DNA of 64,000 bases from Pachysolen tannophilus NRRL Y-2460 (GCA_001661245.1 KV454016.1:1052268-1116267); one strand, 5' to 3'. Numbered from the stretch's first letter, positions 26,685-59,286 are shown. Notes: a model not told the origin generated them from the letters alone. Program-made: numbers and translations.

Positions 26685-27079
26685 CAATTGCAAAACAAAA
26701 TATTTCCGTCTCCAAAGTTGGAGAAGATTTTGGGGTTGAGGTCAAATCGAAATTTCAATTTTTGTAGAGAACAGCTCTTAAGTTAAAGTAAAGAACGATT
26801 GTAAAAATAATTCAATTTAATTCAAATAAAAATAGCAGGAAATAGGATTGAAAATGGACTCTTTTTCGAGAAAAGTTAAGTCCTTTGATGCTTTTCGTAA
26901 GTTTGATTTTTTGTTTTTTAGGAGTGTATTATTATTATCGCAATTACTTTTACTTAACTTTTTTTTTTTTTTTTTATTTTTTTCAATTTACAGCTAAGAC
27001 TATATCTCAGAATCAGGTAAGATCCACAAGGGGTAGTTATTCCACTATATTGATGATAACTTCCTTATTCTTCTTTTTG
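26685..27079. other. Inverted 395-bp segment carrying the ERV41 promoter, exon 1, intron and start of exon 2
   Basis: Reverse-complementing the segment joins ...TTC TTT TTG to GTC TGG ATT GAA in frame; 3-bp microhomology CAA (26685-26687) / TTG (27077-27079). Confidence 0.9.
26854..27079 (+). CDS. ERV41: ERV41 5' portion on the opposite strand: exon 1 26854-26896, intron 26897-26993, exon 2 part 26994-27079
   Basis: Spliced translation MDSFSRKVKSFDAF-PKTISQNQVRSTRGSYSTILMITSLFFFL matches the Erv41/Erv46 N-terminal FDAFPK motif; GTAAGT donor, TACTTAAC branch-like motif, TACAG acceptor. Confidence 0.9.
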
Positions 27080-27272
27080 TCTCCAAAAAGGAAACTTAAG
27101 CTTTCCAAAAACGGAGAAATTATTTCTATTATGTAAATGCGCCTAACTAAATTTTAGCTTTAGCTTTTAAAAGAGGGTATTATTCATTTTGTCAAACCTC
27201 TTGAAATCATTAACTTGATCAGCTGGTTAGGCTTTAACTTTTTTTGGAGGTAGTCAAAGAAGGTATTGTACT

Positions 27273-28802
27273 ATGCAAGATATTGGAGATACTGAATTGC
27301 TGAATAGTGAGGTGCGATTTGGGCATAGCATAGAAAATGATTATGAGGAAAGTGATATAAGATCTCAAGAATTGGATTCTATAAAAGCGATATACCCTGA
27401 GGCGGTATTATCCAAGAAGCGTTTCTGTGGCACTGTTGATATAATGGTTGTAACTGATGATCCAGTTACTGTTGTGCTTAAATCTGGTAAAGAACTGAAA
27501 GTTGGTATAGAACTGAAAGAACAACAAATGAAGGAGGTAAAAGCAAAAATTCATTATTTACCTAGTTTAGTTTTTCAATTTAAATTACCTCAAGGATATC
27601 CATATCAATCACCACCTATTATCAGTTTACTTTCGAGCTGGATTCCTTCACTGACAATTGGACATTTGAATTTAGAGCTATTGCGATTATGGGAAAGCTT
27701 TCACGATTTAGTAATTTTTACAATGATTGATTTTTTACAAGAGAAAGCATCAAATTTATTTGATTTGGCTCAAGATAATATTTATTTTACTACATCTAAA
27801 ATGACTTTTGATAACTTTAAAGAATTTGATAAATATTCGATATTACAAAAATTTAATAATGAAACATTTACTTGTGATATTTGTCAAGAAGATAGAAAGG
27901 GGTTATATTGCTCTAAATTTAGTGATTGTGGACATGTTTTCTGTATTCAATGTTTGAGAAATTATTTTGAATCATATATATTGAGCAGCGATATAGATAA
28001 AATTCATTGTCCTGATTTTAATTGTACAAAAAGGTTTACAAACTTGAATTCTGAAATTTTGAAAGAATTAGATAAAGATGATAATTATAAAAGGATTGCA
28101 GAAATTGAAGAAACTTTTTTTATGCCTCCATTATCAAAAAAATTCTTACTCAAAATAATTTCAGAAGAACTTTTCAAAAAATACTTCGATTTATTTATGA
28201 AAAGGCAATTTGACTTATTTGCAAAATATTTTCCGACAAAATCAGTTCAGTGTCCTGATGTTCAATGTCGAAAACAGTTCATTCGTGAAAACCAAGATGA
28301 CTTATTAACAATTTGTCCATCTTGTAAATTTGCATTTTGCTTTAAATGCAAGCATTCATGGCATGGACCGAACAATCTTTGTCGTAACATAGAACTGGAT
28401 GGTATTCCTCAAGAAGAAATATTAATCTGGATTGAAAACGAGTCGGATTCAAAGGCAAGATTGAAACTAAACTACAAATATGGTAAAAAGACAATGGAAC
28501 TAGCATCGAAAGAATATATTTCTGATAAACTATTTGAAGAACTGATAAAAGATCCTCACTCAGATTTACAGAAATGTCCCTTTTGCAGGACAGTTATTCA
28601 AAGATCAGAAGGTTGCAATAAGATGAGATGTTCTCAATGCTTTACAATATTTTGCAATTTATGTGGTCAACAATTGCACCCTTCGGATCCATACGAGCAT
28701 TTTCGGGAAAGAAGCTCTGAATGTTATGGGAAATTATTTGATGGTATGGCGGGAACAGAGGAAGCAGAAATGGACCATGGTTTTCAGTTTTTGGCAATCT
28801 AA
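27273..28802 (+). CDS. ITT1: RWD + RBR (RING-IBR-RING) E3 ubiquitin ligase
   Basis: RWD (ELDSIKAIYP, YPYQSPP), RING1 CDIC..CGHVFCIQC, IBR, RING2 CPFC..IQRSEGCNKMRC; neighbour of ERV41 as in S. cerevisiae. Confidence 0.9.
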   Translation: MQDIGDTELLNSEVRFGHSIENDYEESDIRSQELDSIKAIYPEAVLSKKRFCGTVDIMVVTDDPVTVVLKSGKELKVGIELKEQQMKEVKAKIHYLPSLVFQFKLPQGYPYQSPPIISLLSSWIPSLTIGHLNLELLRLWESFHDLVIFTMIDFLQEKASNLFDLAQDNIYFTTSKMTFDNFKEFDKYSILQKFNNETFTCDICQEDRKGLYCSKFSDCGHVFCIQCLRNYFESYILSSDIDKIHCPDFNCTKRFTNLNSEILKELDKDDNYKRIAEIEETFFMPPLSKKFLLKIISEELFKKYFDLFMKRQFDLFAKYFPTKSVQCPDVQCRKQFIRENQDDLLTICPSCKFAFCFKCKHSWHGPNNLCRNIELDGIPQEEILIWIENESDSKARLKLNYKYGKKTMELASKEYISDKLFEELIKDPHSDLQKCPFCRTVIQRSEGCNKMRCSQCFTIFCNLCGQQLHPSDPYEHFRERSSECYGKLFDGMAGTEEAEMDHGFQFLAI

Positions 28803-28956
28803 ATTATGGAAGAAACATATAGGTTAGGTAAGGGGTATTTTGTATTTATGTTAAAACCTGATTTTTTATTTTCTTTTTTTTTTTAATTTTTTGTATAAAG
28901 CATCATTTCATTAATTCATTACATAAATATCAAGATTAAAATAAAATATAAAAATG

Positions 28957-30699: not shown

Positions 30700-31037
30700 T
30701 TGTCAACTGTTGAGTTCAAAACCAATGAGAAAATCACTTCAATTGCTTATTCTTCTCAAATTTGGATATTTATATACATCAAATAAATATTTACGTTGGA
30801 ATTAAAGTTACTTTCTGATAAGTATTGCTGATTATTTATTTGGACGTACATACAATATACAATCTAAATGACAGATATAAAGTAATTAATACAAAACTTT
30901 TACTCTATCTAATAATAATACAAATACTTCTGATGCCTTGTATTTCTGTTTAAAATGCATTTTCTTATGTTAACCAGAGTGGTCCTCTTAATTAACAAGC
31001 TTCTGTGTATATATAAATGATAAAATTCCTGCATATT

Positions 31038-33862: not shown

Positions 33863-34101
33863 CTTATTAGAAAACTAACAAGACCCAGTGTTGCGAAAGA
33901 ATAGTATTCTAATGTGATTTCGTTTCACTTTCACTTTTTGTTTATCTTTTTTGGTTTTTTATTTACTTTTTAAATTTTTTTTTTTAAACATTTTTTCAAA
34001 TCACCAAAATAAAATCATTTAAATCATTTAAATCCATCAAAAAGTGTTTGAATTCATTAATTTGTAAAAAATTTAATTGATTCGAGTAGATATTCAACAT
34101 C

Positions 34102-35978: not shown

Positions 35979-37324
35979 ATGGGGTATAACTACAAGGATG
36001 TCGATTGGGTTGACATTAAGAAAAATGTCGTTAGGGTAAGCATAAAGTATTTAAAAACATATGAAATACTTGATAAGTTATTAACAATATAAATTCCAAT
36101 TTTCAATTGATTGTGTATTTTCATAATTAGGCCCCTCAAATTTTGAAAAACAAAGCAAAAGTGGGAACTACCACTGTAGACGAGGAATTTGAATTATTAA
36201 GTAACAGATTCTATGAAATAGATGAAGACATTAATAAATTATCAAAATCAGTGCATAAATATCATTCGGCAATTATATCGTTACTTGAATTTTCTAGTCA
36301 ATTGGGTCACACAATGACTATTCTCTTGGATCCTACAATTGAAAGAAAAACAATTGACATTAATCAATTGAATAACGGTGAACACACAAGTTTGAAAAAC
36401 TACGAAAATGCAACTGGAGCTTCAGAAAGAATTTCAAAATATTTAGAATCTTATACTTCAATTGATCATGGTATCAATGATTGTTTAAATATTTTACTTG
36501 AAAGTTTTGATTCACAAATTAAACAGTTGACAATTTTTTTGAAAAAAGTTAAAAAATATATTAAGGAAAGAAATTATTCTTTGTTAGATTATGATAAGTA
36601 CATTGATTCAATTGAAAATTTAGAAGATAAATATAATTCTTTGACTCCAAAGCAACAACAGCAGTTATTTACTAATAAGAGAAGAATTGAAGACTTTAAA
36701 GTAAAATATGATACTTTAAACTTAAATTTGAAAAAAGAATTGCCATATTTTTTTGCATTAATAAGGGAAGCAGCAAAACCTTTATTTACAAAAATTTATT
36801 ATACACAATTTTCCATAATGTATCAAATGCATATTTCTTTATCAAACAATGCACCACAGGAGTATCTTGGCAATTTTAAAGATTTCAAAAAAGACGTTAT
36901 TTTGGAAAAACAAGCAAAATCATCAGAAATCTTGGATTCTTTAAAAATATGCAATTTCCATGACGAATTTTTAAAAACCATAACGAATAACTTAATATTA
37001 AGTGATACTTACCCATCAAGCTCAAAAAATTATTCAGCTAGCACCACCAACTTATCAAGAGAATCTTCTGCAAAGAGTTCCTCAAAGATTTTCATGAATT
37101 CTCTCCCACATCCTCCACCTCCGTATACTCGTAATGAACCTGCTATGACAGAAGACTACTGTATTGCTCTATACGATTTTTTCAAAGTTCAAGATGGGGA
37201 TTTATCTTTTAAAGAAAATGATAAAATTAAAATATTACAAAGAAATGAAAGCAACGGCTGGTGGAAAGGAGAGCTAAATGGAAAGATAGGATTTTTCCCA
37301 AGAAATTACGTTTCTTTATGTTAA
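35979..37324 (+). CDS. BAR-SH3 amphiphysin (Rvs167-like); exon 1 35979-36035, intron 36036-36130, exon 2 36131-37324
   Basis: Splicing GTAAGC...TATTAAC...TAG gives W.DIKKNVVR-APQ, the N-BAR helix-0 motif; C-terminal SH3 (ALYDF..DLSF..WWKG..GFFPRNYV). Confidence 0.85.
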
Positions 37325-37564
37325 GCTCAGCAAATTTGAATTAAATAATTTTTCCTTTTGTATAATACCACTATCAAATTATAGTTTTTAGCTAAAAAGC
37401 CGAGTGAGAAATATTTTAATTCTTAAGTAATCAATTTTTGTAAAACCTATAATTGAAATGCTATACATAAATTATTATCTTACATATCATTTGTAAGCTC
37501 AACGCTGTTATAAGTTATGACTGTAATGCTACCAATATCACTCTCTACCATTTTTTTTTCTCCC

Positions 37565-39433
37565 TTATAATTTCTTAAGAAGTTCAAGATTTTCATTAAT
37601 TTCGTTTTTTACTTCTCTTTCCCATATTTCAACGCACCTACCAGAACAAAATTGTTTCCTGATTGGAATGAGTTTAACATCCACAAAATCCCACCATTCA
37701 ATTACCTCAGCAACATATTGTATTACAATTTGGTTACATACAGAACACGTTTCTTTTAAGGCACCCAGATGTAAAGCTTTTGCAATAGTTTGAGAAATTG
37801 TTTTACCAATTACTTGTTTCCACTTCCTGGTTTCTGATTGAGAAGTTTTGTATGTTGATATTTCACGAAGACATAATTCTGTTAATTTGGGAATTTTGAA
37901 TAAGTTTGACTGCAAAATTTTTTGTTCTTTCTCATCAAAGCTATCTTCGTATAATTGTTGGGTGGAAGGTGAAAGGGAAAATTCAGTTTCTGATTTCTGG
38001 GATAATATGCTTAAATTTTTAGTTAATTTGAATGCTCCTTCATTTATAATATGCTTATTTCTGTTGATATATTTTAAACGTCCTATGAATCTTCTCTGTT
38101 TAGAGTTCTTCTGTATTGACTGTGGACAAATTTCTCTTGTAGTTTTAAAATCTTCTTTTTCTAATAATGCAGAATTAGGTCTTAGAACCAAAGTTTGAAG
38201 ATTATTCAAATCCAATAACTGGTGTGGTAAAGTCTGAATTAAATTTGAAGATACATTCAAATACTTCAAATTTTTTAAGTATGAAATGATCCCAGGTAAT
38301 GATTTCAATTTATTATCTCTTAAGCTCAATACTTCAATTTTATCACGTAGTTCAAATAAGCATGGTGATAATGAACTTAAAGCATTATGAGTTAAGTAGA
38401 TTTGTAATCTCACAGGGGAAATAAATCCAAATTCATCAGGTATAACTAAGTCTTTAAAATCTTCAATTTCATCTGGAATTTTGACTAAATTTAAATTCTC
38501 GAGGTAAATTTTCTTATCACAATTTTCAAAAAAAATTGTTAATAAATCTCTGGCTCTTTTCAGTACTAATTCTGCATCTAATGTTTGTTCTTGACTCCAA
38601 TCCAAATCTTTTTCAGACAAGGGTTGAACCCCATTAACCCTACCAAACCTATCAATTCCAAAATCAATGGTATCATCAGATTGTACATGGTTTTCATTGA
38701 AAAAAGGATTTGAAAAATTATTATTATTCATAAAAGTAACTTGACTACTGGGAAGCGGAAATTGATTATTATTGTTACTATCATTATTATTATTATTATT
38801 ATTAGGAGGAAGCCAATATGGTTGATTAACAAGACTTTGATTTTCGATTTTAGTTGGTGAACTGGGTAAAATAAAAGTACGATCTGCTACTGAATTGAAA
38901 TATCCCATTTCCAATTCAGAATCAAGTGTATTACTATCATTTGCAAAATCCCTTTTTTTCATATTGCTATTGGAAATTGGAGGTGAACTGGACAATTTGT
39001 GGAACGGATATATAGAATCTGATGAATGATTATTTATAAAATCTGTTAATGAATTTTTTTTATCTTTTCGATGCTTATAAGGAAGTTGATGCTGTGAATG
39101 TTGAATCTGAGTGCTAGTTGGTATATGTTCTAGATCCATCCCATCAGACGTAAGCATTGGATCTGAACTTCCAACTCTTGATTTCTTGTTATATTTATAC
39201 CCATCATAAGAATCATTCTCAATGTTTACATCGCTTCTACGTCGTTTTGAAGCAGATGCATTGCAATCATTGACACTTTCTGCATTCTCTAAACCTCTGG
39301 TATGGAATATTGTACCACCTGCATTCAAATCTCTAATTTTACGATTCACAGGTTCTGTTGATAACGGTACCTCATTCTTATCATTTCTTGATATATCAAA
39401 TGCCAATGGAAGTAAAGTATTCTGTCTATCCAT
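37565..39433 (-). CDS. Leucine-rich-repeat protein with disordered N-terminus and C-terminal CxxC...CSxxC module
   Basis: LxxLxLxxNxL repeats (LSLRDNKLKSLP, LNVSSNLIQTLP). Confidence 0.75.
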   Translation of the reverse strand: MDRQNTLLPLAFDISRNDKNEVPLSTEPVNRKIRDLNAGGTIFHTRGLENAESVNDCNASASKRRRSDVNIENDSYDGYKYNKKSRVGSSDPMLTSDGMDLEHIPTSTQIQHSQHQLPYKHRKDKKNSLTDFINNHSSDSIYPFHKLSSSPPISNSNMKKRDFANDSNTLDSELEMGYFNSVADRTFILPSSPTKIENQSLVNQPYWLPPNNNNNNNDSNNNNQFPLPSSQVTFMNNNNFSNPFFNENHVQSDDTIDFGIDRFGRVNGVQPLSEKDLDWSQEQTLDAELVLKRARDLLTIFFENCDKKIYLENLNLVKIPDEIEDFKDLVIPDEFGFISPVRLQIYLTHNALSSLSPCLFELRDKIEVLSLRDNKLKSLPGIISYLKNLKYLNVSSNLIQTLPHQLLDLNNLQTLVLRPNSALLEKEDFKTTREICPQSIQKNSKQRRFIGRLKYINRNKHIINEGAFKLTKNLSILSQKSETEFSLSPSTQQLYEDSFDEKEQKILQSNLFKIPKLTELCLREISTYKTSQSETRKWKQVIGKTISQTIAKALHLGALKETCSVCNQIVIQYVAEVIEWWDFVDVKLIPIRKQFCSGRCVEIWEREVKNEINENLELLKKL

Positions 39434-39654
39434 AATCAGAGCATAGCAGTTTGAGAAAAGAATAGATAATTATAAAGATACGATGAAATAAATGAATGAA
39501 TAAAAAAAAAAAACTCTATTCGTTTTGTTTACCTTTATTTACCTTTGTGACAAATTTGGCGCGTGAAAAGTAAAAAGAAAAAAAAATTATTCCATTTTGG
39601 GTAAGTTTACTAGAAATAATATGCACATTTGGGAGAAAAGTGAGAATACAATTT

Positions 39655-39726
39655 TCCGTGATAGTTTAGTGGCTAGAATTACCGCTTGTCGCGTGGTAGA
39701 CCGGGGTTCAATTCCCCGTCGCGGAG
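39655..39726 (+). tRNA. tRNA-Asp (GTC)
   Basis: TCCGTGA acceptor stem pairs with TCGCGGA; anticodon loop TTGTCGC; GGTTCAATTCC B-box; poly-T terminator follows. Confidence 0.96.
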
Positions 39727-39809
39727 CTTTTATTTTTTTTATTTTTTTTATTTTTTTTTTTTTCTTTTCTTCTATATATAATATTATACATCTATTACTA
39801 CCTACCCAA

Positions 39810-42086
39810 CTACTTCTTGTCTAGGTTACTATTAAAATAATGAGGAGCTAATTCTTCTAACCAATGTTCTCTTATAGGAATACAGTTTCTCATGTACTGT
39901 TTTGAAGTTAAAACCAATTCATTATAAACTATCAATTTTGGTGGAGGTTTGACTTTAAACAAGATACTTGAAGGATGGATAAAAACATTTTGTTGTTTTT
40001 TTATTGATTTGTATGAATCTCCTAATTTTGATAATTTGGCTGTATGTGGGAAAAATCCCGAAACTATTGATTTTTGTACATTGATTAATTGTTGTTCTGG
40101 TAATAATTTATTTTCCACAATAATATTTTTCACAATTTTCAATTTTACACATATTCTTTTTAATTGATTTCTAATATTTTTAACTCTTTGTAATGTCTTG
40201 GATTGTAAAAAAAAATCTCTACACCATTGATTTGAATATCCATTATCTTTATACTGATTATAAATTTCTAATAAAGTTAAATGATCTCCTCCTTCAATTT
40301 TACTAAAAGATTCTCTCAGTTGATCCGCTTGTAATTTTTTTTCTTTTGGACGATAAAATAGAGAATTAGATTCACCCAACATTGACATTATTGTTAAAAT
40401 TTCTTCAACACAATTAAATTTTTCACTTGAAATAATACTTTTTGAAATCATTGGATCTGTTGGAAATTCACACATTTGGAAACCTAATTTAGTTAAATTT
40501 CCCTTATCGTTCATTGCACCTAATGCATATAACAATTCTAATGATTTTATTAAACTTTCATTTGATGGAGGATCCATAAATTCAAAATGCAACAAATCAT
40601 TGATCCCCATGGATAATAATAATAATACAATACTTGACAAATTAGAACGTAAAATTTCTGGCGTTGGATTAGATTCTAATTCATTGAAATAAGCCCATTT
40701 AGTGAATAATCTAAAACATTTTCCCGGACCAACTCTTCCAGCTCTTCCAGCTCTTTGATCTACTGAAGCCCGTGAACAAGGTGTAATCACCAACAGCTCC
40801 ATTCCTGTTGATGGATTATAAACATTTTCCTTAACAAAGCCCGGATCTATAACATATACTATACCGTCGATAGTAATAGAAGTTTCAGCTATATTTGTAG
40901 CCAAGACAACTTTCCTGGCATTTTCAGGTGTTTTTTCAAAAATTTTCTGTTGTATTTCAGGAGGTAAATTGGCATAGATGGGACATATCAACATTTCCTT
41001 AATTTTTGATCCCAACTTCCCACATGTTTCAGTTAAACTCTCAACTATTGATTCAATTTCATCTTGACCAGTTAAAAATACTAATATATCACCTTTTGGT
41101 TGAGTGGTATGTATTTGGAAAATAGTTGTCAATGCAGCTTGAACATAGTTTGCTTCTGGTTGTAAAGTATAGTACACATCCACTGGGAATTTTCTTCCAG
41201 GAACACTAAAGATAGGTGCATTATTGAAAAATTCAGAAAATTTCGAGGCATTAATTGTAGCAGACATGACTATTACTTTAAGATCTTTTCTTCTAGTTAT
41301 TAATTGTTTGAGCAAGGACAAAATCAAATCCGTAGCACTTGTTCTTTCATGTGCTTCATCAATCATTATTACAGAATATTTTGATAGTTCTGGGTCCACA
41401 GAAAATTCTTTTAATAACATACCATCAGTTAAATATTTTAAAATTGTCTTATCACTAGATTTATCCTCAAATCTAATTGTATAACCAACTTCATTCCCTA
41501 ATTTCACATTCATTTCTTCTGCTACACGAGTGGCAACACTCGTAGCAGCCACTCTACGTGGTTGAGTACATGCAATTGTTAATCCATGATTGAGTTCCTG
41601 TTCAATCAAGTATTGAGGAATTTGAGTAGTTTTACCAGAACCTGTTTCACCAACTAGAATTAAAACTTGATATTTCTGAACAGAATCCAATATTTCATCT
41701 CTATATTTATATACAGGCAAAGATTTCCGTTGATCAGATATAGATTTAAGTCTTTGACGTTGTAATTCTTTTTCTTGTTCTATTGCAATATCTTTTTCAT
41801 CTTTTAAAGTTGATATTTCATCTATTAATTTCGAATCTAATGCAAAATCAATTTTTGAATCAAATACAAATTCGTATTTCTCATTTCCTGGAAGTGATAT
41901 TTCATCAGGATTTTTAAAATTCTTATCGTTGGTATTAGTCTTGGATCTTTTAACTTGCTGAGATTCCCAACTTATATTACTATAATCATTTCTATTTCTT
42001 TTAGAAGTCAACAATTGCTCTTTATGTTTTCTATCATTAGATTCCAGCGGCAATTGATAAATATTATCCCCACTTGACCGTTTCAT
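39810..42086 (-). CDS. PRP2: DEAH-box spliceosomal RNA helicase Prp2/DHX16
   Basis: GETGSGKTTQIPQ, DEAHER, SAT and PCSRASVDQRAGRAGRVGPGKCFR motifs; first ATG at 42086. Confidence 0.88.
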   Translation of the reverse strand: MKRSSGDNIYQLPLESNDRKHKEQLLTSKRNRNDYSNISWESQQVKRSKTNTNDKNFKNPDEISLPGNEKYEFVFDSKIDFALDSKLIDEISTLKDEKDIAIEQEKELQRQRLKSISDQRKSLPVYKYRDEILDSVQKYQVLILVGETGSGKTTQIPQYLIEQELNHGLTIACTQPRRVAATSVATRVAEEMNVKLGNEVGYTIRFEDKSSDKTILKYLTDGMLLKEFSVDPELSKYSVIMIDEAHERTSATDLILSLLKQLITRRKDLKVIVMSATINASKFSEFFNNAPIFSVPGRKFPVDVYYTLQPEANYVQAALTTIFQIHTTQPKGDILVFLTGQDEIESIVESLTETCGKLGSKIKEMLICPIYANLPPEIQQKIFEKTPENARKVVLATNIAETSITIDGIVYVIDPGFVKENVYNPSTGMELLVITPCSRASVDQRAGRAGRVGPGKCFRLFTKWAYFNELESNPTPEILRSNLSSIVLLLLSMGINDLLHFEFMDPPSNESLIKSLELLYALGAMNDKGNLTKLGFQMCEFPTDPMISKSIISSEKFNCVEEILTIMSMLGESNSLFYRPKEKKLQADQLRESFSKIEGGDHLTLLEIYNQYKDNGYSNQWCRDFFLQSKTLQRVKNIRNQLKRICVKLKIVKNIIVENKLLPEQQLINVQKSIVSGFFPHTAKLSKLGDSYKSIKKQQNVFIHPSSILFKVKPPPKLIVYNELVLTSKQYMRNCIPIREHWLEELAPHYFNSNLDKK

Positions 42087-42210
42087 GTTTCTAGACACTG
42101 ATCTGAACCGCAAATTACATCAACTAACCAACTAACTTATTTCTGATGAGATTGCAAAAAAAAAAAAAAAAAAAAAAAATAAACCAAGATAAAATTAAAA
42201 AAAAATTAAT

Positions 42211-42283
42211 TGGACGAGTCAGGAATCGAACCCGAGACCTTTCGCATGCTAAGCGAACGCGCTACCAACTACGCCACACGCCC
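42211..42283 (-). tRNA. tRNA-Ala (AGC)
   Basis: Reverse complement GGGCGTGTGGCGTAGTTGGTAGCGCGTTCGCTTAGCATGCGAAAGGTCTCGGGTTCGATTCCTGACTCGTCCA; G3:U70 pair; T-tract downstream on the minus strand. Confidence 0.96.
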
Positions 42284-42490
42284 TAAATTAACATCATGGA
42301 ATAACACTTTGTTTCAATAGTGGTTTGTGCTCTCCGCAAAGTACTGGTAAAACCAAAATCCTTTCTTTGACAGGAAGAACTTTTTAATCTACAAATGGAA
42401 TGAGAATTAAATACTGGAATTGTTTAGTCACATTGTACCATAAGAGCAAATGCATAATCCATGTCGCCTATCGCTGGTAGTATATAACTC

Positions 42491-44320
42491 ATGTTGAATA
42501 CCCTTTTCCATAGGCACCTGAATTTATTGAGGTCATCTGTGTCGTTTTCAATTTGCAAAAGAAGGTTTAGAAACAATTTTTTTATTTGGGTTGGGAATTG
42601 GAAGATAAGAGAAAACTGTTTAATCTCTGTGCGACAATATTCACAAGAACCGCTAAAACTGAGTATATCTGAATTCAAGGGTGAAAATGATTTAGAGAAA
42701 TTGCAAGGGTGGGTTGAGGTATTCATTGAACGTTCAAGTCAGGCTATACAAAAAGATGATATTCCACTAAGTATTGAATATGCGTTGAAAAAGCTAGTTA
42801 GAGATTATATTAAACAGAAAGACCCACCAATTGGTGAAGATTCATCAAATGATTTCTTGGATATTTTTGAGTCTAAAGATGATTTAGATGTTGAGCGTTG
42901 TATTAGTTGGATTTCTTTACAATTTGATGGTGCTAGAAATCAATCTATTGAAAAACAAAGAATAAATACCAAAAGATACAATTTATCAACTTTATCATAT
43001 TCACAATTTTTAAAACAATTATATCCGTTGAAAGAGAATATAGGACCCACGAAGTATAAAATTGATTTTCGAAAATTATTTGATTCCTATTTGTTATTAC
43101 CAAGTCCGAGGCCATTATATATTAAAAGTTATCATTTTGAAAAATTGTTAAAGACTTTATTACATTCTGTAAATGAGGAAAATTTTTTTTTATTAAAGTT
43201 TTGGGAAGTGATTATTGAAGATATGAGATCTTGTAATCTACCTTTAACAACGAATAATAAAAATAAAGTGTTACAATTATTATTTCATAGCGAAAATAAC
43301 ATTAATTGGGATAACTTGAATTTAGATACAATTGAAAAATTGGAGAAGAGCTTGCAGTTGAATGATATTTCATCTTATAATATTATTTTGAAAGCTTGCT
43401 TAATGAATAAAAATACAAGTTCCGTTTCTAACAATAACTATTATGATGAGTTAATAACTATAATTTTACGGAAAATAAATACAAAGAGATTGAAACCAAA
43501 CAAAGCTACATATGTTTTTTTAATTAATTATTTATCATCAATTAACAGTATCGATCACTTGGCTCAAATTTTATACCACATCTTGGATAAAACTAACATT
43601 AGCTTTGATATTCATATATTAAACGATATCTTAATCGCTTTGTTGAAATGTGGACTTTTCGAGTCATCAACTTTATTGTTAAATCACATCATCGATATTA
43701 CATATTTGAAAATAAATAAAGGAGGTACACTAGAATATTTACAAAGAAACAAAATTAGAGCAATACACAAGAAAAATTTAAAAATTATTGATTTTATTAA
43801 TCAGGAATTAGACAATAAGGATATTATATGGCCCTATTTGATAAATCCAGTTGACAGGACTTTTGACATATATATCAGAAATTATATCGCTAATAAAGAG
43901 TTTTTTGAAAAATTTGAAGTGATATTGAAGTATTTACAATTTATGATGGACCAAAATATATTTATAGATAAGGGAACTTTTGAAACCCTATATGAGTTTT
44001 TCATTAACAATCATGAACGGGATATTAATTCTTTGAATTTTGCAAACTTGATGAAGCTAACAGATTTATTGGTGAATTCGAATAAAAAAAGACAAATGTT
44101 TGTTACGGATACATCAATTTCTAAGACTTTTCAAGCTTTTAAAATGTATTCACCCCATTCTGAATTTACTAGTTTCATTGAAGAAAAAGAGATTCAGATT
44201 TTTGGCCTAATTAAAAAAGCCAACAACTCACAGAAAGCTGTTGATATTCATGATGTATTTTATGCTAGAGACCAGATGTATTTCAGAACATTAGAAATTG
44301 TTGTAAACACTAATAAATAG
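42491..44320 (+). CDS. Probable mitochondrial PPR-like protein
   Basis: Basic, Arg-rich N-terminus; PPR-like repeats DISSYNIILK, KPNKATYVFLI, DIHILNDILIAL, PVDRTFDIYI. Confidence 0.65.
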   Translation: MLNTLFHRHLNLLRSSVSFSICKRRFRNNFFIWVGNWKIRENCLISVRQYSQEPLKLSISEFKGENDLEKLQGWVEVFIERSSQAIQKDDIPLSIEYALKKLVRDYIKQKDPPIGEDSSNDFLDIFESKDDLDVERCISWISLQFDGARNQSIEKQRINTKRYNLSTLSYSQFLKQLYPLKENIGPTKYKIDFRKLFDSYLLLPSPRPLYIKSYHFEKLLKTLLHSVNEENFFLLKFWEVIIEDMRSCNLPLTTNNKNKVLQLLFHSENNINWDNLNLDTIEKLEKSLQLNDISSYNIILKACLMNKNTSSVSNNNYYDELITIILRKINTKRLKPNKATYVFLINYLSSINSIDHLAQILYHILDKTNISFDIHILNDILIALLKCGLFESSTLLLNHIIDITYLKINKGGTLEYLQRNKIRAIHKKNLKIIDFINQELDNKDIIWPYLINPVDRTFDIYIRNYIANKEFFEKFEVILKYLQFMMDQNIFIDKGTFETLYEFFINNHERDINSLNFANLMKLTDLLVNSNKKRQMFVTDTSISKTFQAFKMYSPHSEFTSFIEEKEIQIFGLIKKANNSQKAVDIHDVFYARDQMYFRTLEIVVNTNK

Positions 44321-44356
44321 AGAATAAAAGTAATATTTATTTTATCATTCGTCGTT

Positions 44357-46732
44357 TTAAAGTTCTTCTAAATACTTATTTAAATACCTATTTTTCAAAT
44401 TTAACTGTCTAATAACATCCCAGATTTCAGCATCATATTCATTCAAAATTTCGACTATATCAATAATCGGATCTTGTCTTTCTTCAAAGTTATTATTTTC
44501 AACGTACGCTTTAACAATTTCACCATACCTATTTCTTAAAGTTTGTGGATCTTCACCTTCAAAAGACACAAAATTTTTCTTAAGCGATGGTTCAGGAATT
44601 CTGGGCTTCATATAACTTTTAATGAAAATAAGAGAAGTCCTGATTTTTTCTTCCAAACATGATAATGTTGTTTCAGCGTCATACGTCAAAATATTGGATA
44701 ATTTTCTATTTGCCTTATTAATAACTTTGATATTACCGAATTGTCTAGCATTATATTTCTCCGATATTTCTCTGTCATGAGTAATATTGAAACCTAGAAA
44801 CCAGTTTAAATTTTCCAAAAGAACTAAATCATTATCGCTATTTTCAGGATCAGTAATTTCATCATAATTTACAAAAAAACTAGTGGAATGTTCATCAGTA
44901 AGTGCATTTTGCAATATTTTTTTAAAAATTTTTAATTTCATATCCAATAAATTTTCACCTTCAACTTGTTCTTTATCGACGGAAAAATTTAAAAATTCAT
45001 TTCTATAAGGAAATGATACTATGTTTTTTACTGTGAAATCTTTTAAATTTAACGACGATATTGTTGTTAACGGGTGTGGAGTTGCTATTAATTGTAAGAC
45101 TTTTCTTTCTTCTTTTTCAAAATCATTATCCATATTTAATGAAGACTTTATTACAAGATTTTTATTTTCACATTTGGGTATTAATGTTTTCAAAACGTTT
45201 TCATAACCTTCAATTGATTTCAAGTTTTCTTTATTATAAAGATTTTCGTTATTGTCAATTTGTTTCAAATCTTGTTTAATACTATCCCACCTTTCTTTCA
45301 ATTTCAAACTTCGCACTTTTAGGAAGTTTTCTGGAATTGGATATCCAACTTCAATCAATTTTGATGGACATTTACTCATTTTTTTCCCAATTCTGATTAA
45401 ATTTTTTGATAAAAGATTGTTTGGTAATGCAATTGGATCAATTATATTTATATCTGTACTAATTCTATTCAAAAATAAGGTATGTTGATGTAGATCAATA
45501 GATTGAAGCACTTTATCAAACAAAAATTTATTAGTTGTATCTGCAAGAGCTGGATTCAATTCTTTTATATTATCTATTGAATATCGACCAAACAAGTCTG
45601 TATAATAGTTGCTCGCTGGAAGCTTATTTGTAAAATTTTTTGTATGTAAAATGGAATTTAATGCTGTTTTCAATGAATTTTTATTAATAATTAAAAAATC
45701 TTCTTCATCTGAAGTTACTATATCTTGCTCTGCTAATTTTTTATGGAAACAACTTTTCAATAAATTTTGTTTAAATTTAACAAAATCATTTTCATTATCA
45801 ATAATTGGGAAAAGTTTATAATCTATGTATATACCATTTTGTATTCTATCATTACCTTCAGTATTTAAATAATCATGCAAACCTAATAATTTTAAATTTA
45901 AATTAGATAAAAGTAAATCAGGATATTGATTTTCAAATAAATTAATGAAATAATTTTTATTATTAATATCAGGTTTTTTCTTTTGAGATTTGAAAAAGCT
46001 AAATCCCAATGCTTTTTTTTGTTTAACATTATTTTTTTGTTTAAATTTTTTACGATTTTCAATCAATTTTTTCCTTCTTTCTTTTCTTTGTTTTATTCGT
46101 TCATCTCTAGTTAAAGAATTTGGGTCTTTAAGTATTAATTTTTCAATATCACTGTCGCTTTCTCTATTAAGTTTACTATCATCTTTATTCCCATTATTAT
46201 AATCATCATCATCATAATCATTATCATCATCATTATCTTTCTTGTAGTTCAGTAAAATTTCTTTTGGATTTAAAATTGTTGGATTAACACCTAAAGAATA
46301 ATAAAATTTCACCCATTTTTTCAATAATTTTTTTTCAAATAATTGTTCTTCAATAGGTAATTTTTCAACATCATTTTCATTAAAATATGTAAATACAGGA
46401 CAATTATTTGGATTATTGATCAAAGATTTAAATTTTATAAGTGATGGGGTATTATCCTGAGATATTAAAGACTCACTTAAATCAGCTATACTTGTCCCTC
46501 CATTATCATAACTCTGATTTATAAATTCTTGAATATAATTTCTTGGAGATACAGAAGATTGATCTCTTAAGATAAAATAACATAAAAATATCAGTATTAA
46601 AATCAGCGGTATTAAATATTTTAAATGAACCCTGTTTTTCCTTAAAAAAAGCTTGAACCTCGCAACAGCCAATCCATTCTTCCTTTTCCTATACCCACCA
46701 CCATGACTACTGTTCATCAGTTGAAACCTCAT
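44357..46732 (-). CDS. Type II membrane protein of unknown function (single N-terminal TM, large luminal domain)
   Basis: 791-aa ORF; basic cytosolic tail then hydrophobic YLIP.ILI.IFLCYFIL. Confidence 0.7.
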   Translation of the reverse strand: MRFQLMNSSHGGGYRKRKNGLAVARFKLFLRKNRVHLKYLIPLILILIFLCYFILRDQSSVSPRNYIQEFINQSYDNGGTSIADLSESLISQDNTPSLIKFKSLINNPNNCPVFTYFNENDVEKLPIEEQLFEKKLLKKWVKFYYSLGVNPTILNPKEILLNYKKDNDDDNDYDDDDYNNGNKDDSKLNRESDSDIEKLILKDPNSLTRDERIKQRKERRKKLIENRKKFKQKNNVKQKKALGFSFFKSQKKKPDINNKNYFINLFENQYPDLLLSNLNLKLLGLHDYLNTEGNDRIQNGIYIDYKLFPIIDNENDFVKFKQNLLKSCFHKKLAEQDIVTSDEEDFLIINKNSLKTALNSILHTKNFTNKLPASNYYTDLFGRYSIDNIKELNPALADTTNKFLFDKVLQSIDLHQHTLFLNRISTDINIIDPIALPNNLLSKNLIRIGKKMSKCPSKLIEVGYPIPENFLKVRSLKLKERWDSIKQDLKQIDNNENLYNKENLKSIEGYENVLKTLIPKCENKNLVIKSSLNMDNDFEKEERKVLQLIATPHPLTTISSLNLKDFTVKNIVSFPYRNEFLNFSVDKEQVEGENLLDMKLKIFKKILQNALTDEHSTSFFVNYDEITDPENSDNDLVLLENLNWFLGFNITHDREISEKYNARQFGNIKVINKANRKLSNILTYDAETTLSCLEEKIRTSLIFIKSYMKPRIPEPSLKKNFVSFEGEDPQTLRNRYGEIVKAYVENNNFEERQDPIIDIVEILNEYDAEIWDVIRQLNLKNRYLNKYLEEL

Positions 46733-46963
46733 ACTTTCTTTCCCATTAGAAAAAGAAAATTCAAAGAGTTTTCAGAAAATCTTATTATAAACAAATTCAT
46801 TTACTACATTAAAGTTTCTTTCAGTTATAGCTTAAAAGAGATGAGTTGGGCTTCTCGAAGAAAATCAACTAAGACTGAAACAGGGGCTGAAAACCTACAA
46901 TTAGCAAATAGCAAAATAAAAAAAACAAAAAAAAAACAAAATAGGGGCGGCAGGAAGAAGAAG

Positions 46964-47430
46964 TCCAATACATAGAGCCACAGTTACAGAGGCATCTGCA
47001 GCATTCCCATTTTGTTTCAAAATTTCAATACCCATCTTGGAACAAAGAGGAACATCACATGCAACTGCACCATTCCGAGCTTTTACAAGATGTTTCTCTG
47101 AAGGCTCTAAAGTTGGACCACCAATAGATTTCCCAAGTTCCAATTCCTGTTCATAAGCCAATACTCTTTCATTCTCAATTGCTCTATACCCACTACCTCC
47201 GAATTTAAAACATATTTTTAAAAACTAACAACAACATTATCATTTATATCATCACTATCATGACCTCTTTCACCATGATCACAAAAATAAAATAATGTAC
47301 CGAATATTAAAAGTAAAAAAGTAAATAATTTATACTTGAAACTTGAATCATTCAGCCGTCTCCTTCTTTGATTAACTGATAATGGCAAAATACTCTCACC
47401 ACCTATTCTACTCTTTTTCTCATTCATCAT
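46964..47430 (-). CDS. ECM38: Gamma-glutamyltranspeptidase 5' portion on the opposite strand, with a 1-nt frameshift at about 47220-47224
   Basis: MMNEKK...TM (KLFTFLLLIFGTLFYF)...HLVKARNGAVACDVPLCSKMGIEILKQNGNAADASVTVALCIG is the canonical GGT N-terminus. Confidence 0.88.
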
Positions 47431-47606
47431 AAATTAAGTAACAAAATATCCATAAGATCAAAATAAATAGTAAAGCAAAAAGGAAAAAAAAAAAAAAAAA
47501 AATAAAATATATTAGTAATTTCTAATTGATAAGGTCTATCTTTCCTGTTATCGGAAAAAGCTTCCATGCAGAACAGAACTTTTGATGAAAGTTTTCAAAT
47601 TTTCAT
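46964..47606. other. Inverted segment of about 645 bp carrying the ECM38 promoter and first about 156 codons
   Basis: Re-inversion gives TGT ATT GGA CTG ATC AAT TCT CAT TCT TCA GGT (CIG-X-INSHSSG); 2-bp microhomology AG (46962-46963) / CT (47607-47608). Confidence 0.9.
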
Positions 47607-49169
47607 CTGATCAATTCTCATTCTTCAGGTATTGGTGGTGGTGGGTTTATAGTTTCTAAAAAAATGGATGAAGATGATGCAATTAGTATTGATGCTAGAG
47701 AAATGGCTCCAGGATCGGCATATAAAGATATGTTTAATAATAGAGAAGATTTGGCTAGGATTGGTGGTTTAAGTGTAGGTATACCTGGAGAATTAAAAGG
47801 TTTATATGAATTATATAAACTTCATGGTTCTAAAAATTTAACTTGGCAACAATTAATTCAACCTGTTATAGATTTAACCAATAATGGTTGGATTGTTGGT
47901 GAAGTTTTTGATAAAGTTTTAAAATTGTATACAAAAACATATGCTCCAGGAATTTTTAATAAACAAGATTGGTCATTTGTTTATAATGATGAAACTGGAG
48001 AATTACTTAGTGAAGGTGATTTGATGAAAAGACCTTCACTTTCTCATACTTTATCTTTAGTTGCTCAAAATGGTTCAGATGCAATATTTTATGATTCAGA
48101 AGGTCCAATTGTAAAATCAATTGTTGAAAAAATTCAAGAAAAAGGTGGTATTTTAACTAAATCTGATTTTAGTAAATATAAAATTCGAGTAGAAAAAGCT
48201 TTAATTACAGAAAATTTTACTCATGATAATTATAAAATTTTTACAAGTAATGGAGCATCTTCAGGACTGGCACTTGCTGCAGGTTTAAATATAATGAATA
48301 GTTTTAATGATTTAAATGGGTTTGATTCTACTGCTGAAGATTTTAAACCTATAGAAAGTCATAGATTGATTGAAACTATGAAATGGATGGCTAGTGTTAG
48401 AAGTAATTTTGGTGATTTAAATATTTATTCTAAAAATCAATCTGAAATTGAAGAACATTGGAAAAGATATAAAAAATTTTTAAAACCTGAATGGTCTTTT
48501 GAAATTAATTCAAAGATAAATGATAATTATACATTACCATCATGGAAAGATTATGAACCTGCTTATCAACTGAATAATCCTCATGGTACTGCTCATTTTT
48601 CAATTATTGATAAAGATAATAATGCAGTAGCAATGACAACAACCATCAATTTAATATTTGGATCGTCAATTCATGACCCTGATACAGGTATAATTTTAAA
48701 TGATCAAATGGATGATTTTTCTATACCAACATCACCAAATGCATTTGGATTACAACCATCAATTTATAATTATATTGAACCTTTTAAAAGACCTTTATCA
48801 TCTTCATCACCAACAATTATAATAAATTCCATTTCAAATAAACCTGATTTAATAATTGGTGCCGCTGGCGGTAGTAAAATAACCACATGTGTTGTTCAAG
48901 CCATTATAAGAAATTATCATTACAAGATGGATTTATTAAACGTTATAGCCGCACCAAGATTACACCATCAACTATTACCAGAAATTGTCTCCATAGAAGA
49001 ACCATTAATTAAATATGAACTTGTAGATGAATTGATTAAAAAAGGTCATGAAATTGAATTAGTCCCACACCTGACCCTGATGAATGGAATCCGTTACAAT
49101 GTTCAAGAACAATGTTGGGAAGCAGTTAGTGATTATTGGAGAAAAAGAGGTGAAGCCTATGGTTACTAA
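47607..49169 (+). CDS. ECM38: Gamma-glutamyltranspeptidase 3' portion (520 codons, including the catalytic Thr)
   Basis: INSHSSGIGGGGF, IDAREMAP, HGTAHFS, NDQMDDFS, KRPLSSSSP, GAAGGSKI and PRLHHQL motifs. Confidence 0.92.
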   Translation: MINSHSSGIGGGGFIVSKKMDEDDAISIDAREMAPGSAYKDMFNNREDLARIGGLSVGIPGELKGLYELYKLHGSKNLTWQQLIQPVIDLTNNGWIVGEVFDKVLKLYTKTYAPGIFNKQDWSFVYNDETGELLSEGDLMKRPSLSHTLSLVAQNGSDAIFYDSEGPIVKSIVEKIQEKGGILTKSDFSKYKIRVEKALITENFTHDNYKIFTSNGASSGLALAAGLNIMNSFNDLNGFDSTAEDFKPIESHRLIETMKWMASVRSNFGDLNIYSKNQSEIEEHWKRYKKFLKPEWSFEINSKINDNYTLPSWKDYEPAYQLNNPHGTAHFSIIDKDNNAVAMTTTINLIFGSSIHDPDTGIILNDQMDDFSIPTSPNAFGLQPSIYNYIEPFKRPLSSSSPTIIINSISNKPDLIIGAAGGSKITTCVVQAIIRNYHYKMDLLNVIAAPRLHHQLLPEIVSIEEPLIKYELVDELIKKGHEIELVPHLTLMNGIRYNVQEQCWEAVSDYWRKRGEAYGY

Positions 49170-49581
49170 ATATTACATTATTTTCTGTATCTAAAAAATA
49201 ATAGAAACTAAAGGTGGGCTATATAAGCTGGGTTATTCGCGGATGCAATTTAAAGTACGTTCAATTTCTTCATCTTGTTTGAAGTTAAAATGTGTTTTTT
49301 TTTGTTTTTTCTGCTTTTTGATACTAAGCGTGTTTATGTCTCTTTTTTTGAGTTCCAGAACTTTTCTTTATTTTTGTTTATTTATATTGTTGATCTCTTA
49401 CCAGGGGTAAAAAAAAAAAAAAAATGACACTATAAATAATTACATTTAAATTAAATTTTTTGAACATCATTGATCTTATATTAAAAAAACCCCTTATCAT
49501 TATATAATCAACTTTACAATATATTATTATATATTATTATTATTGTTGTGTTGTACCTGACTTACTTTACTTACTTACTTA

Positions 49582-49620
49582 GTGACGTGGTGAAGAGTGA
49601 CGTGGTGACGTGGTGACGTT
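49582..49620. repeat. Four GTGACGT(G/T) octamers (CRE/ATF-like) upstream of MSB1
   Basis: Copies at 49582, 49597, 49605 and 49613, preceded by TTAC repeats. Confidence 0.8.
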
Positions 49621-50082
49621 TCGACTTTGTTATTGATTTTTGTAGTTAAAAATTCCCGATCTTATCGTGTAATTTAAAGTGTAATTTATACACTTTAAAT
49701 ACGATTTTAAAAACGGAATTTTCCCATTTAACTTGAGGTTTTTTTTTACAAAAAATCCCGTTTGTTTACAATTTTTTTTTTTTTTTTTTTTTAAACAGCG
49801 CTTAAAATCGAAGAGGACAAAATTTAGAAACCTCTTTCTTAAAATTATACCTATATTTATTATTTATATTTTTTTTATATATTTGATACTTATAAGAAGG
49901 TAATAAAAAGCTTGAAAGTGTGTTGGTGGATCTGTAAGAGTAGGATTTATATATTAATAAAATAATTAATTTTGAAGAAGGGGAGAAGAGAAGAGAAAAA
50001 AAAAAAAAATTAATATTGGGAACGTTGTTGGATAATAAATTTTGAGTTATTTTAAGACTTCTGGTTTAAGTATTTAAAAATA

Positions 50083-53000
50083 ATGATGTCAGCAAATGAT
50101 ATTGATTTACCCAGTTTGCCTGCTTTTAGTATGGTGAGAAAGGCTTCTAGTACGAGTGATAAATTTGTTTATTCGAATGGGAAACAAAAGGGGATTCCAA
50201 CAAATATTAAGAATAATGTTAAAAATAATACAAGAAATTATCAAGATTTTTTTGAAATTGTTTTCACAAGAGATGAAGTTAAAGATGTTATTCATTTGAT
50301 AACTGGTGAGATTAAGGCTAAAGGTACTAAATCTGAATTAATTTTTTTACCATTTAGACCTCAAAATGATGAATATAAATTGAAAAAATTTTTATCAAGA
50401 ATATTTATTAATAATGAAAAATTGGATAATTTAGATATAATTGAAAAAATTATTAAAAGAACTGATGAATTTACATTAATTTCTGCTTTAAAATTTTTTT
50501 GGTGTAGATTACCACATTCTTCAATAATTGGTTGGAAACCTTTTTTAAAATTTCAAAAAATGGAAAAAAAGCAAAATTATCCAAGAAGAGCATTTTTAGA
50601 TATTATGCCTCAATGTTTACATTCAACATCTCATGCTTCAATTGTTTATGATTTTTTAGATTTACTTATTTCTATTGCATCATGTACAAAAGAAAATAAG
50701 TTAAGTGGTAGAAAAATTGCAAAAATGTGTGCTATATGGGCATTTGATGGACCTCATCCAAATAATATTAATAATTCCAAAAATATAAGTTGTCATCCAA
50801 GTTATCAAAAAGGTTTAAATGATTGGATTCCTGCATCAGATGCAATGTTTCATCTTTTATTAGCCTTTTTAAGATCAATTTTACCAATAAGAGAAGAAGA
50901 TAAAGTTAAATTACCAAGAACTTTAAGATCATTAATTGCAAATAATTTATATCCACCTCCTTTAACAAAAGATTCAGATTCTTCAGGTTTACTTGAAGTA
51001 CCAATTATAACATTAACAGTAAATAATCCTTCAAAATCACCAACAGAATTAATTTCTAAAATTGTCAAGACATTAACTTTTGAAAATCCAAAACTTTTTT
51101 ATTCAAGAGAAGATTATATATTATTAAAAAATGTTTTTAATGATACTGCTAAAAATGTTATTAATAAGTTATCACTGGAAAATAAGAAAATTATAAATAA
51201 TTTTTGTAATATTGATGAAAATTTAATTGTAAATGAAAGAAATTCAAATGTTAAATTCAAATTAGTTGCTGGTTGGGCAGATGATTCAGATTCGATAATC
51301 AAAAATTCTTCTGATGATACTGAATACTTTACTGCTAATATTTCTAAAACTTTTATAGATGATTATTTTATATGGACTTGGCTCTCTACAATATCTCCTG
51401 AAGAAACTACTTCGAAAAGAAATATCTTTGGAAGAAGTTTCATCATGGAAGTTGAATTGGATGAAGATTATAAAAAATGGATTGTCATAGAGGAACAAAA
51501 TTTAAATGCAGAAAATGTTGTTGATGGTGAAGAGGATAATTTTAAAGAAAATGAAATGGTGAATGATAAAGATTATCAATTAGATTTGAAGTTACAAAAA
51601 TTGCAGAAAAGAGAAAAAGAAATTTTGGATTTAAAAATTAAAAAAGCACTGAGGAGGAAGCAATTAGAAGAAAGTAATGAATTACCCTTACCACCAATCC
51701 CACCAAAGGAAGTAATAAAAAATCAGATGAATGTTACTAAAAAGGATCATCAAAACCATAGCTCAAACCATAATGGTGATAACACAGCTATCACTTCTTC
51801 TAATAAACACCAATCCAAGAAGAGCAAGCCTACTAATAAACTAGGAATGAAGATATCCCAATCATTACTGAAATTAACGAATACCCATGATAGACCTCCA
51901 CCTTTGAAAAAGGACAGCATTTATATAGATTCTCCTTCGATGACTTTTAGCCAGGAACATTTTATGTTACCTGAATTTGGTGCTGATGATGACACTGATG
52001 ATGATTTGAATGAAGAATTAGAAAATTATTTGACTTCGGCAGGATTTGATTATTTAGAAACTTATGATAGAGATGGCAATAAGGTTAAAATAAATAGATC
52101 TCCAATAAAACTGAAATCAGGACCCGAGACTGAACAAGGACTCCAAATATCTTCATCTGTGAATGCTCAAGATATCACGCATAACATGAATGGTATGGCT
52201 TTGAAAGATGGATATGAAAATGGAAATAATAGTAATTATGCACCAAGTTTACCGCCAAAGGATGACGATAGAGATGGTTTTCTGAATAAGGGAGGTCAAA
52301 CGCATCACAAATTATCAAATACTACGAACGAAGTGAACTCGTCTGTTAATTCCTCTACTTCGAAGAAGAAGAGAAAACCACCTCCAAATATGAATGATGA
52401 ATCACAGCAACAGCAACAGCATTCCATCCCTAACCCTTACAGCCATAATGGTGGCCATCTGGAGTTACAAGTTTCGCCTCAACAAAATAGCTATTTGAGA
52501 AGGACTCCTCCTCCACCTCTGCCTGAATTGACAGAGATGCGTAGTTCACATAATGTTAACAATCAGCAATATGCTACTCCCCCTCTTTCTATTTCGTCAC
52601 CTAGAAAACAGGGTATAGACGGCTATATGACACCAGTGGTAAGTCAGCATGAGCAGATTCCTGTACCTCAACAGCAAATGCTGCAGTATGGGTATAATGC
52701 TCAACCTTCATACGTGAATGGTGAAGTTCGACATGAAGCACATCAATTTACTGAGCTGAATAAATACCAGAATGGATCTGCACCAACACAAAATAATGGA
52801 AAGTCTCAGTCTCGTATAGAGTCTCCAATAAGGTCTCCTGTAAAGTCTGGCCTGAGTTCTCCTAAGAAATTTGAAGCTATTTCAAATGCAGGATCACCAT
52901 CAAAGGTTTCATTATATGGTGGCAACAGTGACGATCTTGAGGGTTCGGCTTATTTTTCAATGAAGGAGCCTTCTTCACAGGAACTACTGCAAAATGCTGA

Positions 53001-54426
53001 CCAGCTGACTAGCGAAGATGCTCTTCCGCGTGCTTCAAGGACATCCCAGTTGATGGAAAATTTCAGCAATTTAGAAAATGAGTTACAAAAATTTTTATCG
53101 AATGCTGAAGAATTTGCACTTGATGGAAATAACGATGTTGATGTTTCGAAGACCAATAGTACTCCACCAAGGCCCAGAAAGCCTCCTAAAGAACCAGTTA
53201 TTTTAGATGAATCTGCAGATTTATCTTCAGATATGGCGTCTTCACTTGGAAATACTCCACTTTTGAATACGCAACACTCTGGTAATTACCATAGGGCTGA
53301 TGTTCCTGGACTGCCTCCAAGAGATCCTTCTCCATTAAGGCATCAATACGTACAGGAGGTTACAACTTACCCTCAAGGATCTTCGCCACAAATACAGCAG
53401 CATGTTTCTCATCAACAACACCTCCAACAACAACAATACATTCAACAGCAACCAGCACCACATCCACCAAATCCATCAAATCCATCAAATCCACCAAATC
53501 CACGTTCACCACATCCGCAACAACAACAACAACCTCAGCAGCTGCAACTTTCTTCTCCTGCTGTTCAACAGCAATACACTCAATCACCAATTCAACAGCA
53601 ACGTGCTTCTGCTCCCCACTATCAATATCATGATCAACAGCGTCCGCAACAACAACATCCTTCTCATCAGCAATATCCCTATTCTCAGTACATTCCGCAG
53701 AAATATCCGCAGCTGCAATATCCGCAGCTGCAATATCCGCAACCACAACCACAACCACCTCAGCAAAGGGATGGGCAATCTAGACCTACACAGGCTCCGT
53801 TAGCCTATGCTAATAATGGTGCACATCCTTTGCCAGGACAGCAGCCGCAGTTTGCAACACCTCCTCCATCCCTGAATTCTTATATGGCTCCACAACAGCA
53901 TTTGAACCCAAGGCCTGTTGCTCATGGTCAGCAAATTTACCCATCTCCGAAGTTACTGAAGTCACCTCAGCAGTACCCTCAGGCCCACTATTCACCTCCT
54001 CGTTCTGGTCAAGGTCAACAATATATGCGTCTGCCGAATTTACCTCCACCCCAACAGCAATTGCCACAGCAGCTGCCACAGCAATATCTTCAACCACCAA
54101 ATCAATATTACCAGCAGCAGTATATGCCACCTCAAATTCAGCAACAAGGGTCATATATTCCAAATAACCAGGGAGCACCAGTTTTTTCTCCGCCTTCAGT
54201 TTCAAGTAATGCGGGTAGCAAAAGACAGTCAGATAATTCTTTGCCAGATCAGATGATTCCTGTTCCAATGCAATATAATTATGCTCCCCCAGGAACTAGA
54301 CCTCAACAAACTACGAGCGATTTTGCAATTAATCAAATTCCTACTTCAGTAAAGGTTAATAAATTACATCGGACTGCAAATAATAAAAATAAAAATTTAC
54401 GTGATGCCATTGCTTCAGGTGGATTT
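50083..54426 (+). CDS. MSB1: Morphogenesis protein Msb1 (N-terminal DUF1708 domain, Pro/Gln-rich C-terminus); last two codons and stop displaced to 55038-55030 on the minus strand
   Basis: IHLITGEIK.KG, LKFFWCRLP..IIGW, SHASIVYDFLDL and IDDYFIWTW motifs; upstream of IES4-EXG1 as in YOR188W-190W. Confidence 0.88.
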
Positions 54427-55038
54427 TCGAGGCCGAAAAAATGCTACATCTCGGTTACCTCTTACTATTATTTCACTGTATCTTCGAAGAAAAAAAAGAT
54501 CTTAAAACAAAAAAAATTTTCTTTTTTTTCATAGTGATACCCTTGTGGATCACAAGTACGAAAAAATGAAAAGTTAAAAAAACAATGGTCCTACCTGCAT
54601 TTGGTTGTGCATAATATTGCATTTTCGCTTATTGACAAAAAAAGTCCCTAGTTTTAAGTCTCTGTCAAAATTTAGGCGTAAAGGTTTACTGCGTCTCAAA
54701 AAAAACATCTATTATTCAATTAAAATCAATCTGCAAATGTATAATTATGAGCAAGAGTATAGTAATAACATAGCAAGCATATACCATACGAAGATCATAG
54801 GAATTTTGGCATAGGATTTTTGGCCCTTTTTTGATTCAGACATTATTATTATACAAAAATGTCTAATATTAAAATATACATAATAAAGAAATATCTAATC
54901 TAGAACAGAACCAAGAAAGAAAAAAAAAAAAAAAAAAAATTAAAAACAAAATCATCAAGACATCTATCTATCTATTAACTAAATTATATAACGTTCAGAA
55001 AACAAACAAAAAACCTTTTTCTTTTCATTTCAAATGCC
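54427..55038. other. Inverted 612-bp segment carrying the MSB1 terminal codons, stop codon and 3' flank
   Basis: Re-inversion gives GGT GGA TTT GGC ATT TGA (GGFGI*), followed by T-rich and TATATA terminator-like sequence; 1-bp microhomology. Confidence 0.8.
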
Positions 55039-58918: not shown

Positions 58919-59234
58919 NNNNNNNNNNNNNNNNNNNNNNNNNNNNNNNNNNNNNNNNNNNNNNNNNNNNNNNNNNNNNNNNNNNNNNNNNNNNNNNNNN
59001 NNNNNNNNNNNNNNNNNNNNNNNNNNNNNNNNNNNNNNNNNNNNNNNNNNNNNNNNNNNNNNNNNNNNNNNNNNNNNNNNNNNNNNNNNNNNNNNNNNNN
59101 NNNNNNNNNNNNNNNNNNNNNNNNNNNNNNNNNNNNNNNNNNNNNNNNNNNNNNNNNNNNNNNNNNNNNNNNNNNNNNNNNNNNNNNNNNNNNNNNNNNN
59201 NNNNNNNNNNNNNNNNNNNNNNNNNNNNNNNNNN
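58919..59234. other. Assembly gap (316 N) flanked by poly-T and poly-A tracts
   Basis: Run of N in the sequence. Confidence 0.99.
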
Positions 59235-59240
59235 TAAGAC

Positions 59241-59286
<46 letters not shown>

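Follow-up and report, generated by a model that had tools for sequence, protein, structure and literature searches.

We find that three reversed segments in the public assembly of Pachysolen tannophilus NRRL Y-2460 are, in all likelihood, errors of that assembly and not features of the yeast's DNA. They lie in a 64,000-nucleotide stretch, hereafter the window, and each places a terminal piece of one gene (ERV41, ECM38 or MSB1), together with its flank, on the wrong strand (Table 1). Contigs built from sequencing reads show ECM38 and MSB1 in normal orientation, which identifies these two cases as assembly mistakes and not as a genetic switch. Within 30 kb, the public reference thus contains at least two reversed patches that are proven, and probably a third, at ERV41.

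Table 1. Gene pieces, reversed segments and associated features of the window
Feature	Coordinates	Strand	Basis or remark
ERV41 exon 2 remainder, including stop codon	25776..26684	-	ORF without a start of its own
ERV41 reversed segment (segment 1)	26685..27079, 395 bp	+	Reading of the window and in-silico flip; probable artefact, by analogy
Make-up of segment 1	5' flank, 170 bp; exon 1, 26854-26896; intron, 26897-26993; first 86 nt of exon 2, 26994-27079		
T17 run within segment 1	26959..26975		Right breakpoint 104 bp away
ECM38 reversed segment (segment 2)	46962..47608, 647 bp	-	Read contigs, Pfam, orthologue; breakpoint ambiguity 2 nt
Make-up of segment 2	N-terminal coding part, start near 47430, down to 46962; 5' flank		
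Homopolymer undercall in ECM38	47219		One A more in read contigs, four of four runs
A19 run within segment 2	47484..47502		Right breakpoint 106 bp away; read contigs stop there
ECM38 remainder (gamma-glutamyltranspeptidase)	47609..49169	+	Pfam, orthologue alignment
MSB1 coding sequence up to ...ASGGF	50083..54426	+	
MSB1 reversed segment (segment 3)	54427..55038, 612 bp	-	Read contigs, orthologue ends, flip
Make-up of segment 3	Last two codons and stop, 55038 down to 55030; then 3' flank		
A20 run within segment 3	54920..54939		Right breakpoint 99 bp away; read contigs stop there
Unclosed scaffold gap, 316 N	58919..59234		Flanked by T-rich runs and an A36 run

Split genes and their restoration in silico

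Flipping the three segments in silico yields open ERV41, ECM38 and MSB1 frames, with single continuous orthologue alignments across every junction; the junctions are exact to within an ambiguity of 1-2 nt, and bases are neither gained nor lost. The description given in the first-pass annotation is borne out to this extent: three genes have a terminal piece and its flank reversed, flipping restores each of them in frame, and a homopolymer of 17-20 nt lies where it had been placed in each segment. Its further observation that the breakpoints lack long inverted repeats also stands, as a search of the three segments finds no inverted-repeat pair with arms at both breakpoints. A Pfam scan of 27 ORFs in the window returns no recombinase, invertase or transposase family.

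In ERV41, similarity between the minus-strand ORF (25776-26741) and Erv41 proteins begins no earlier than "...VWIEVGG", and the sole part of the Pfam domain ERGIC_N that this ORF covers is positions 31-90 of 91. The preceding part is found on the plus strand, where exon 1 translates to MDSFSRKVKSFDAF, an intron of 97 nt follows (GTAAGT...CAG), and the start of exon 2, read from 26994 up to 27079, translates to PKTISQNQVRSTRGSYSTILMITSLFFFL. Residues 22-50 of Ascoidea Erv41p match this plus-strand piece, and the minus-strand match starts directly after them. The public protein PACTADRAFT_77084, encoded on a scaffold of 1.13 Mb, is 100% identical to the large ERV41 fragment. The 45 nt to the left of the ERV41 breakpoint, sought as an exact match, retrieve 0 records from metagenome_contigs.

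The gamma-glutamyltranspeptidase encoded by ECM38 is divided in the same manner. The minus-strand piece accounts for positions 2-27 of the Pfam domain G_glu_transpept and the plus-strand ORF for positions 24-511; in the Kuraishia orthologue, residues 62-115 match the minus-strand piece down to 46962, and the plus-strand part takes over from residue 117. At MSB1, the coding content of the reversed segment amounts to Gly-Ile-stop only, and FGI is the C-terminal end in 68 of 80 MSB1 orthologue representatives (drawn from P0245-P0329 and at least 900 aa long, shorter ones being left out). The nearest MSB1 orthologue ends in ...NLRDAIATGGFGI, and a search with the C-terminal region of MSB1 has the window's own protein as its sole match. 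The C-terminal half of MSB1 (52000-54300) is of low complexity and rich in Gln and Pro, with local G+C raised to 0.42, and this region contains 20 CTG codons, which P. tannophilus reads as Ala.

Orientation of ECM38 and MSB1 in read contigs

The first-pass annotation had put forward a eukaryotic intragenic inversion system, and named mis-oriented gap-fill patches around homopolymers as the strong alternative. Orientation was read from Logan contigs, an independent build from raw reads, for runs X1, X2 and X4, which come from one sample in study P1, and for run X5, from study P2. Of the words sampled from 46000-55999, 95% occur in five runs, four of which were compared over 36000-55999; this stretch takes in ECM38 and MSB1, and ERV41 is over 20 kb away from ECM38.

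In four of four runs and both studies, 46962 is joined to 47609 on opposite strands (46964 to 47607 in X4), each run having a contig that descends from 47470 to 46962 and continues straight on at 47609 on the other strand. The same holds for 54426 and 55038, again joined on opposite strands in all four runs (54425 and 55039 in X2 and X4). The contigs that carry the ECM38 joint have depths of 247, 100, 168 and 139 in X1, X2, X4 and X5, respectively, and those that carry the MSB1 joint 284, 100, 184 and 138; these values are close to the depth of neighbouring single-copy contigs (265-289 for the X1 neighbours), and the contigs are unbranched. Both restored junctions stand together on one 7,488-nt contig of X2 (record 11). 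Among the pieces listed, none crosses any of the four ECM38 and MSB1 junctions collinearly with the window; the joints listed represent each tested segment by its coding-side junction only, and two joints and 1,306 pieces fall outside the listing. Both genes are whole in the reads, with their parts collinear. The proposed inversion system does not survive this comparison, as the listed contigs hold both genes in the restored orientation only, at full depth and in four of four runs; this is the outcome that had been named in advance as the mark of an assembly artefact, and the gap-fill alternative is the reading that the read contigs, together with the error marks described below, support.

Some joints of the "skips" type, with sides of 19-25 nt, were rejected as spurious repeat matches; their positions are A/T-rich runs and tRNA genes. 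Several begin at tRNA-Asp(GTC) (39655-39727, plus strand) or tRNA-Ala(AGC) (42211-42283, minus strand), and the raised read depth in the bins of these two genes is that expected of multi-copy genes.

If a reversible switch existed and the assembly had by chance caught its rarer orientation at each of the three loci, both forms would have to be present in the DNA. Contigs prove presence, not absence, and they lose rare variants, so that minority forms in the window's orientation could escape this comparison; the finding that none is collinear extends to the pieces listed. P. tannophilus is reported in PMC5499181 to switch mating type by an inversion. However, the contigs pass through the restored junctions unbranched and at full depth in two studies, there are no crossover repeats and no recombinase among the 27 ORFs, sequencing-type errors are in excess inside the reversed segments, and a consensus assembler would not choose the minority form three times. 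We consider such a switch to have next to no probability, and give equally little credence to the related idea that the reversed form is a real but rare orientation of short invertible segments beside poly(dA:dT), turned over independently of repeats and toggling the ends of genes, which the assembly would have fixed by chance and which contigs would fail to reveal.

The assembly and the reads could also disagree if the DNA preparation used for the assembly were truly inverted and the preparations behind the compared runs were not. X1, X2 and X4 are probably the very sample behind the assembly, X5 being the only independent run (its organism label differs from that of X1-X4). The first three share a sample and a study dated 2010-2016, most likely the genome project, and they agree with X5. 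A difference between sub-cultures would, moreover, leave the error excess and the regular homopolymer offset unexplained, and we judge it highly improbable.

Sequencing errors and homopolymers within the segments

An assembly error accounts for ECM38 and MSB1 in the reads, and the base-level comparison adds marks of procedure. The window differs from the read contigs at nine places in the 1,259 bp of the ECM38 and MSB1 segments and at five in the other 18,741 bp, a rate of 7.1 versus 0.27 per kb (binomial P = 2e-8), with seven of the nine in-segment differences coming from X5 alone; when only differences common to all four runs are counted, two fall in the segments versus four outside (P = 0.05). 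Eight of the nine are in the MSB1 segment. Contigs of four of four runs have an added A at 47219 and at 55007. The first of these is at a T5A5 run, the site of an apparent frameshift in ECM38, and the extra A removes that frameshift. Within 54427-54955, X5 shows four further insertions and three substitutions, and it is the only run with a contig across this interval; X1, X2 and X4 have depth 0 at 54489 and 54697, and elsewhere their depth comes from contigs without the change. The substitution at 54521 is common to X2, X4 and X5.

Outside the segments, homopolymer differences of 1-2 bases are found at 36052, 39501, 49294 and 49739 in all four runs, and the reference has scattered homopolymer-length errors. 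Position 36052 is intronic in an RVS167-like BAR/SH3 gene, which has a short first exon (ATG at 35980), an intron of about 93 nt (GTAAGC...TAG) and a long ORF that begins at 36131.

The distance from the homopolymer to the right breakpoint is nearly constant across three of three segments (Table 1), an agreement that random placement reproduces with P ~ 9e-4 in simulation. The read contigs stop at A19 and A20, which indicates that such homopolymers break short-read assemblies, and the unclosed scaffold gap, itself flanked by homopolymers, shows the assembly breaking at sequence of this kind. The window contains 317 N, 316 of them in this gap, and has a G+C content of about 30%. The interval 58890-59280, which holds the gap and the single further N, lies downstream of a GH5 glucanase-like gene.

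These regularities bear on the possibility that the inversions are real and fixed, each a one-off event such as replication template switching near poly(dA:dT), with ERV41 and ECM38 inactivated and the end of MSB1 altered. Precise junctions with 1-2 nt of ambiguity would suit such events; ERV41, ECM38 and MSB1 are all dispensable in S. cerevisiae, and the read comparison covers ECM38 and MSB1 only. For those two of the three genes, however, this origin is refuted by the uninverted form at full depth in four of four runs, and the breakpoints have no inverted repeats. Three events in 30 kb in otherwise undamaged ORFs, and a homopolymer that keeps a constant distance of about 100 bp, are signs of a procedure and not of mutation, and we regard fixed micro-inversion as very unlikely.

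Since ERV41 lies outside the stretch compared with reads, its status as an artefact is argued by analogy. It shares with the two proven cases its size class, an internal homopolymer (T17), the offset of that run from the breakpoint (104 bp) and an exact junction, and we take it to be very probably the same kind of assembly error. As to how such errors would arise, draft contigs may have broken at long A/T homopolymers, and each gap may then have been filled with a patch roughly as long as a read (395-647 bp) whose anchor lay some 100 bp beside the homopolymer. These patches would have been inserted in reverse complement, and would bring with them homopolymer miscalls of the type seen in single reads.

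Damaged gene models and comparison with known systems

Every patch has left one public gene model faulty. PACTADRAFT_77084 (Erv41) has acquired an invented first exon, with the N-terminus MNFCFYLLHLL..., PACTADRAFT_4453 (Msb1) has an invented C-terminus, ...VIPLWITSTKK, and the glutamyltranspeptidase protein on record is a truncation of 501 aa, most listed orthologues being of about 600-650 aa. If this rate of patching holds genome-wide, artefacts could be behind some of the gene losses, truncations and novel introns that this assembly seems to show. P. tannophilus is much used for studies of the genetic code, as it reads CUG as Ala. There is no biological novelty in these observations, and their value is a practical one, for users of the reference. 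The work in PMC4937558 is stated to build on the Liu 2012 assembly. Logan-derived P0005 and P0126 represent a relative with 69% identity in Erv41 and 60% in Ecm38, in contigs of up to 66,403 bp; their source is probably a Pachysolen-clade yeast.

Having no end repeats and no recombinase among the 27 ORFs, and being absent from the reads at ECM38 and MSB1, the segments match neither flip-flop inversion, nor a bacterial switch, nor a template-switch micro-inversion. Site-specific invertible segments underlie the Hin/Gin/Fim-type switches of bacteria and phages. The segments here resemble them in being short and in that a flip would switch a gene between on and off; unlike them, they have no inverted crossover sites, the 27 ORFs include no recombinase, and the two orientations are not seen side by side in the listed contigs of ECM38 and MSB1. 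Micro-inversions that arise by template switching, as in the four-point model, span tens of bases, are often framed by short inverted repeats, and exist in the DNA itself. Small size, precision and microhomology are common to these and to the present cases, whereas the segments at hand are 400-650 bp long, are without such repeats, and at ECM38 and MSB1 are absent from the reads.

Flip-flop mating-type switching turns over a large segment, flanked by long inverted repeats. In contrast, the segments described here measure 395-647 bp, lack terminal repeats, and at ECM38 and MSB1 do not occur in the reads. What likens them to the flip-flop system of methylotrophic yeasts is an inversion that changes which gene copy is expressed. 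For P. tannophilus itself, PMC5499181, citing Riley et al. 2016, describes mating type as set by flip-flop inversion of a chromosomal segment between two loci.

Gap-closure misassembly is the remaining known process to which the segments can be compared. The junctions here are unusually clean for it, with no bases lost or gained. In other respects the likeness is close: at sharp junctions the reference contradicts the reads it came from, the segments have the size of a read and enclose homopolymers that break contigs, indel errors are in excess within them, and a comparable N gap, still unclosed, is found close by.
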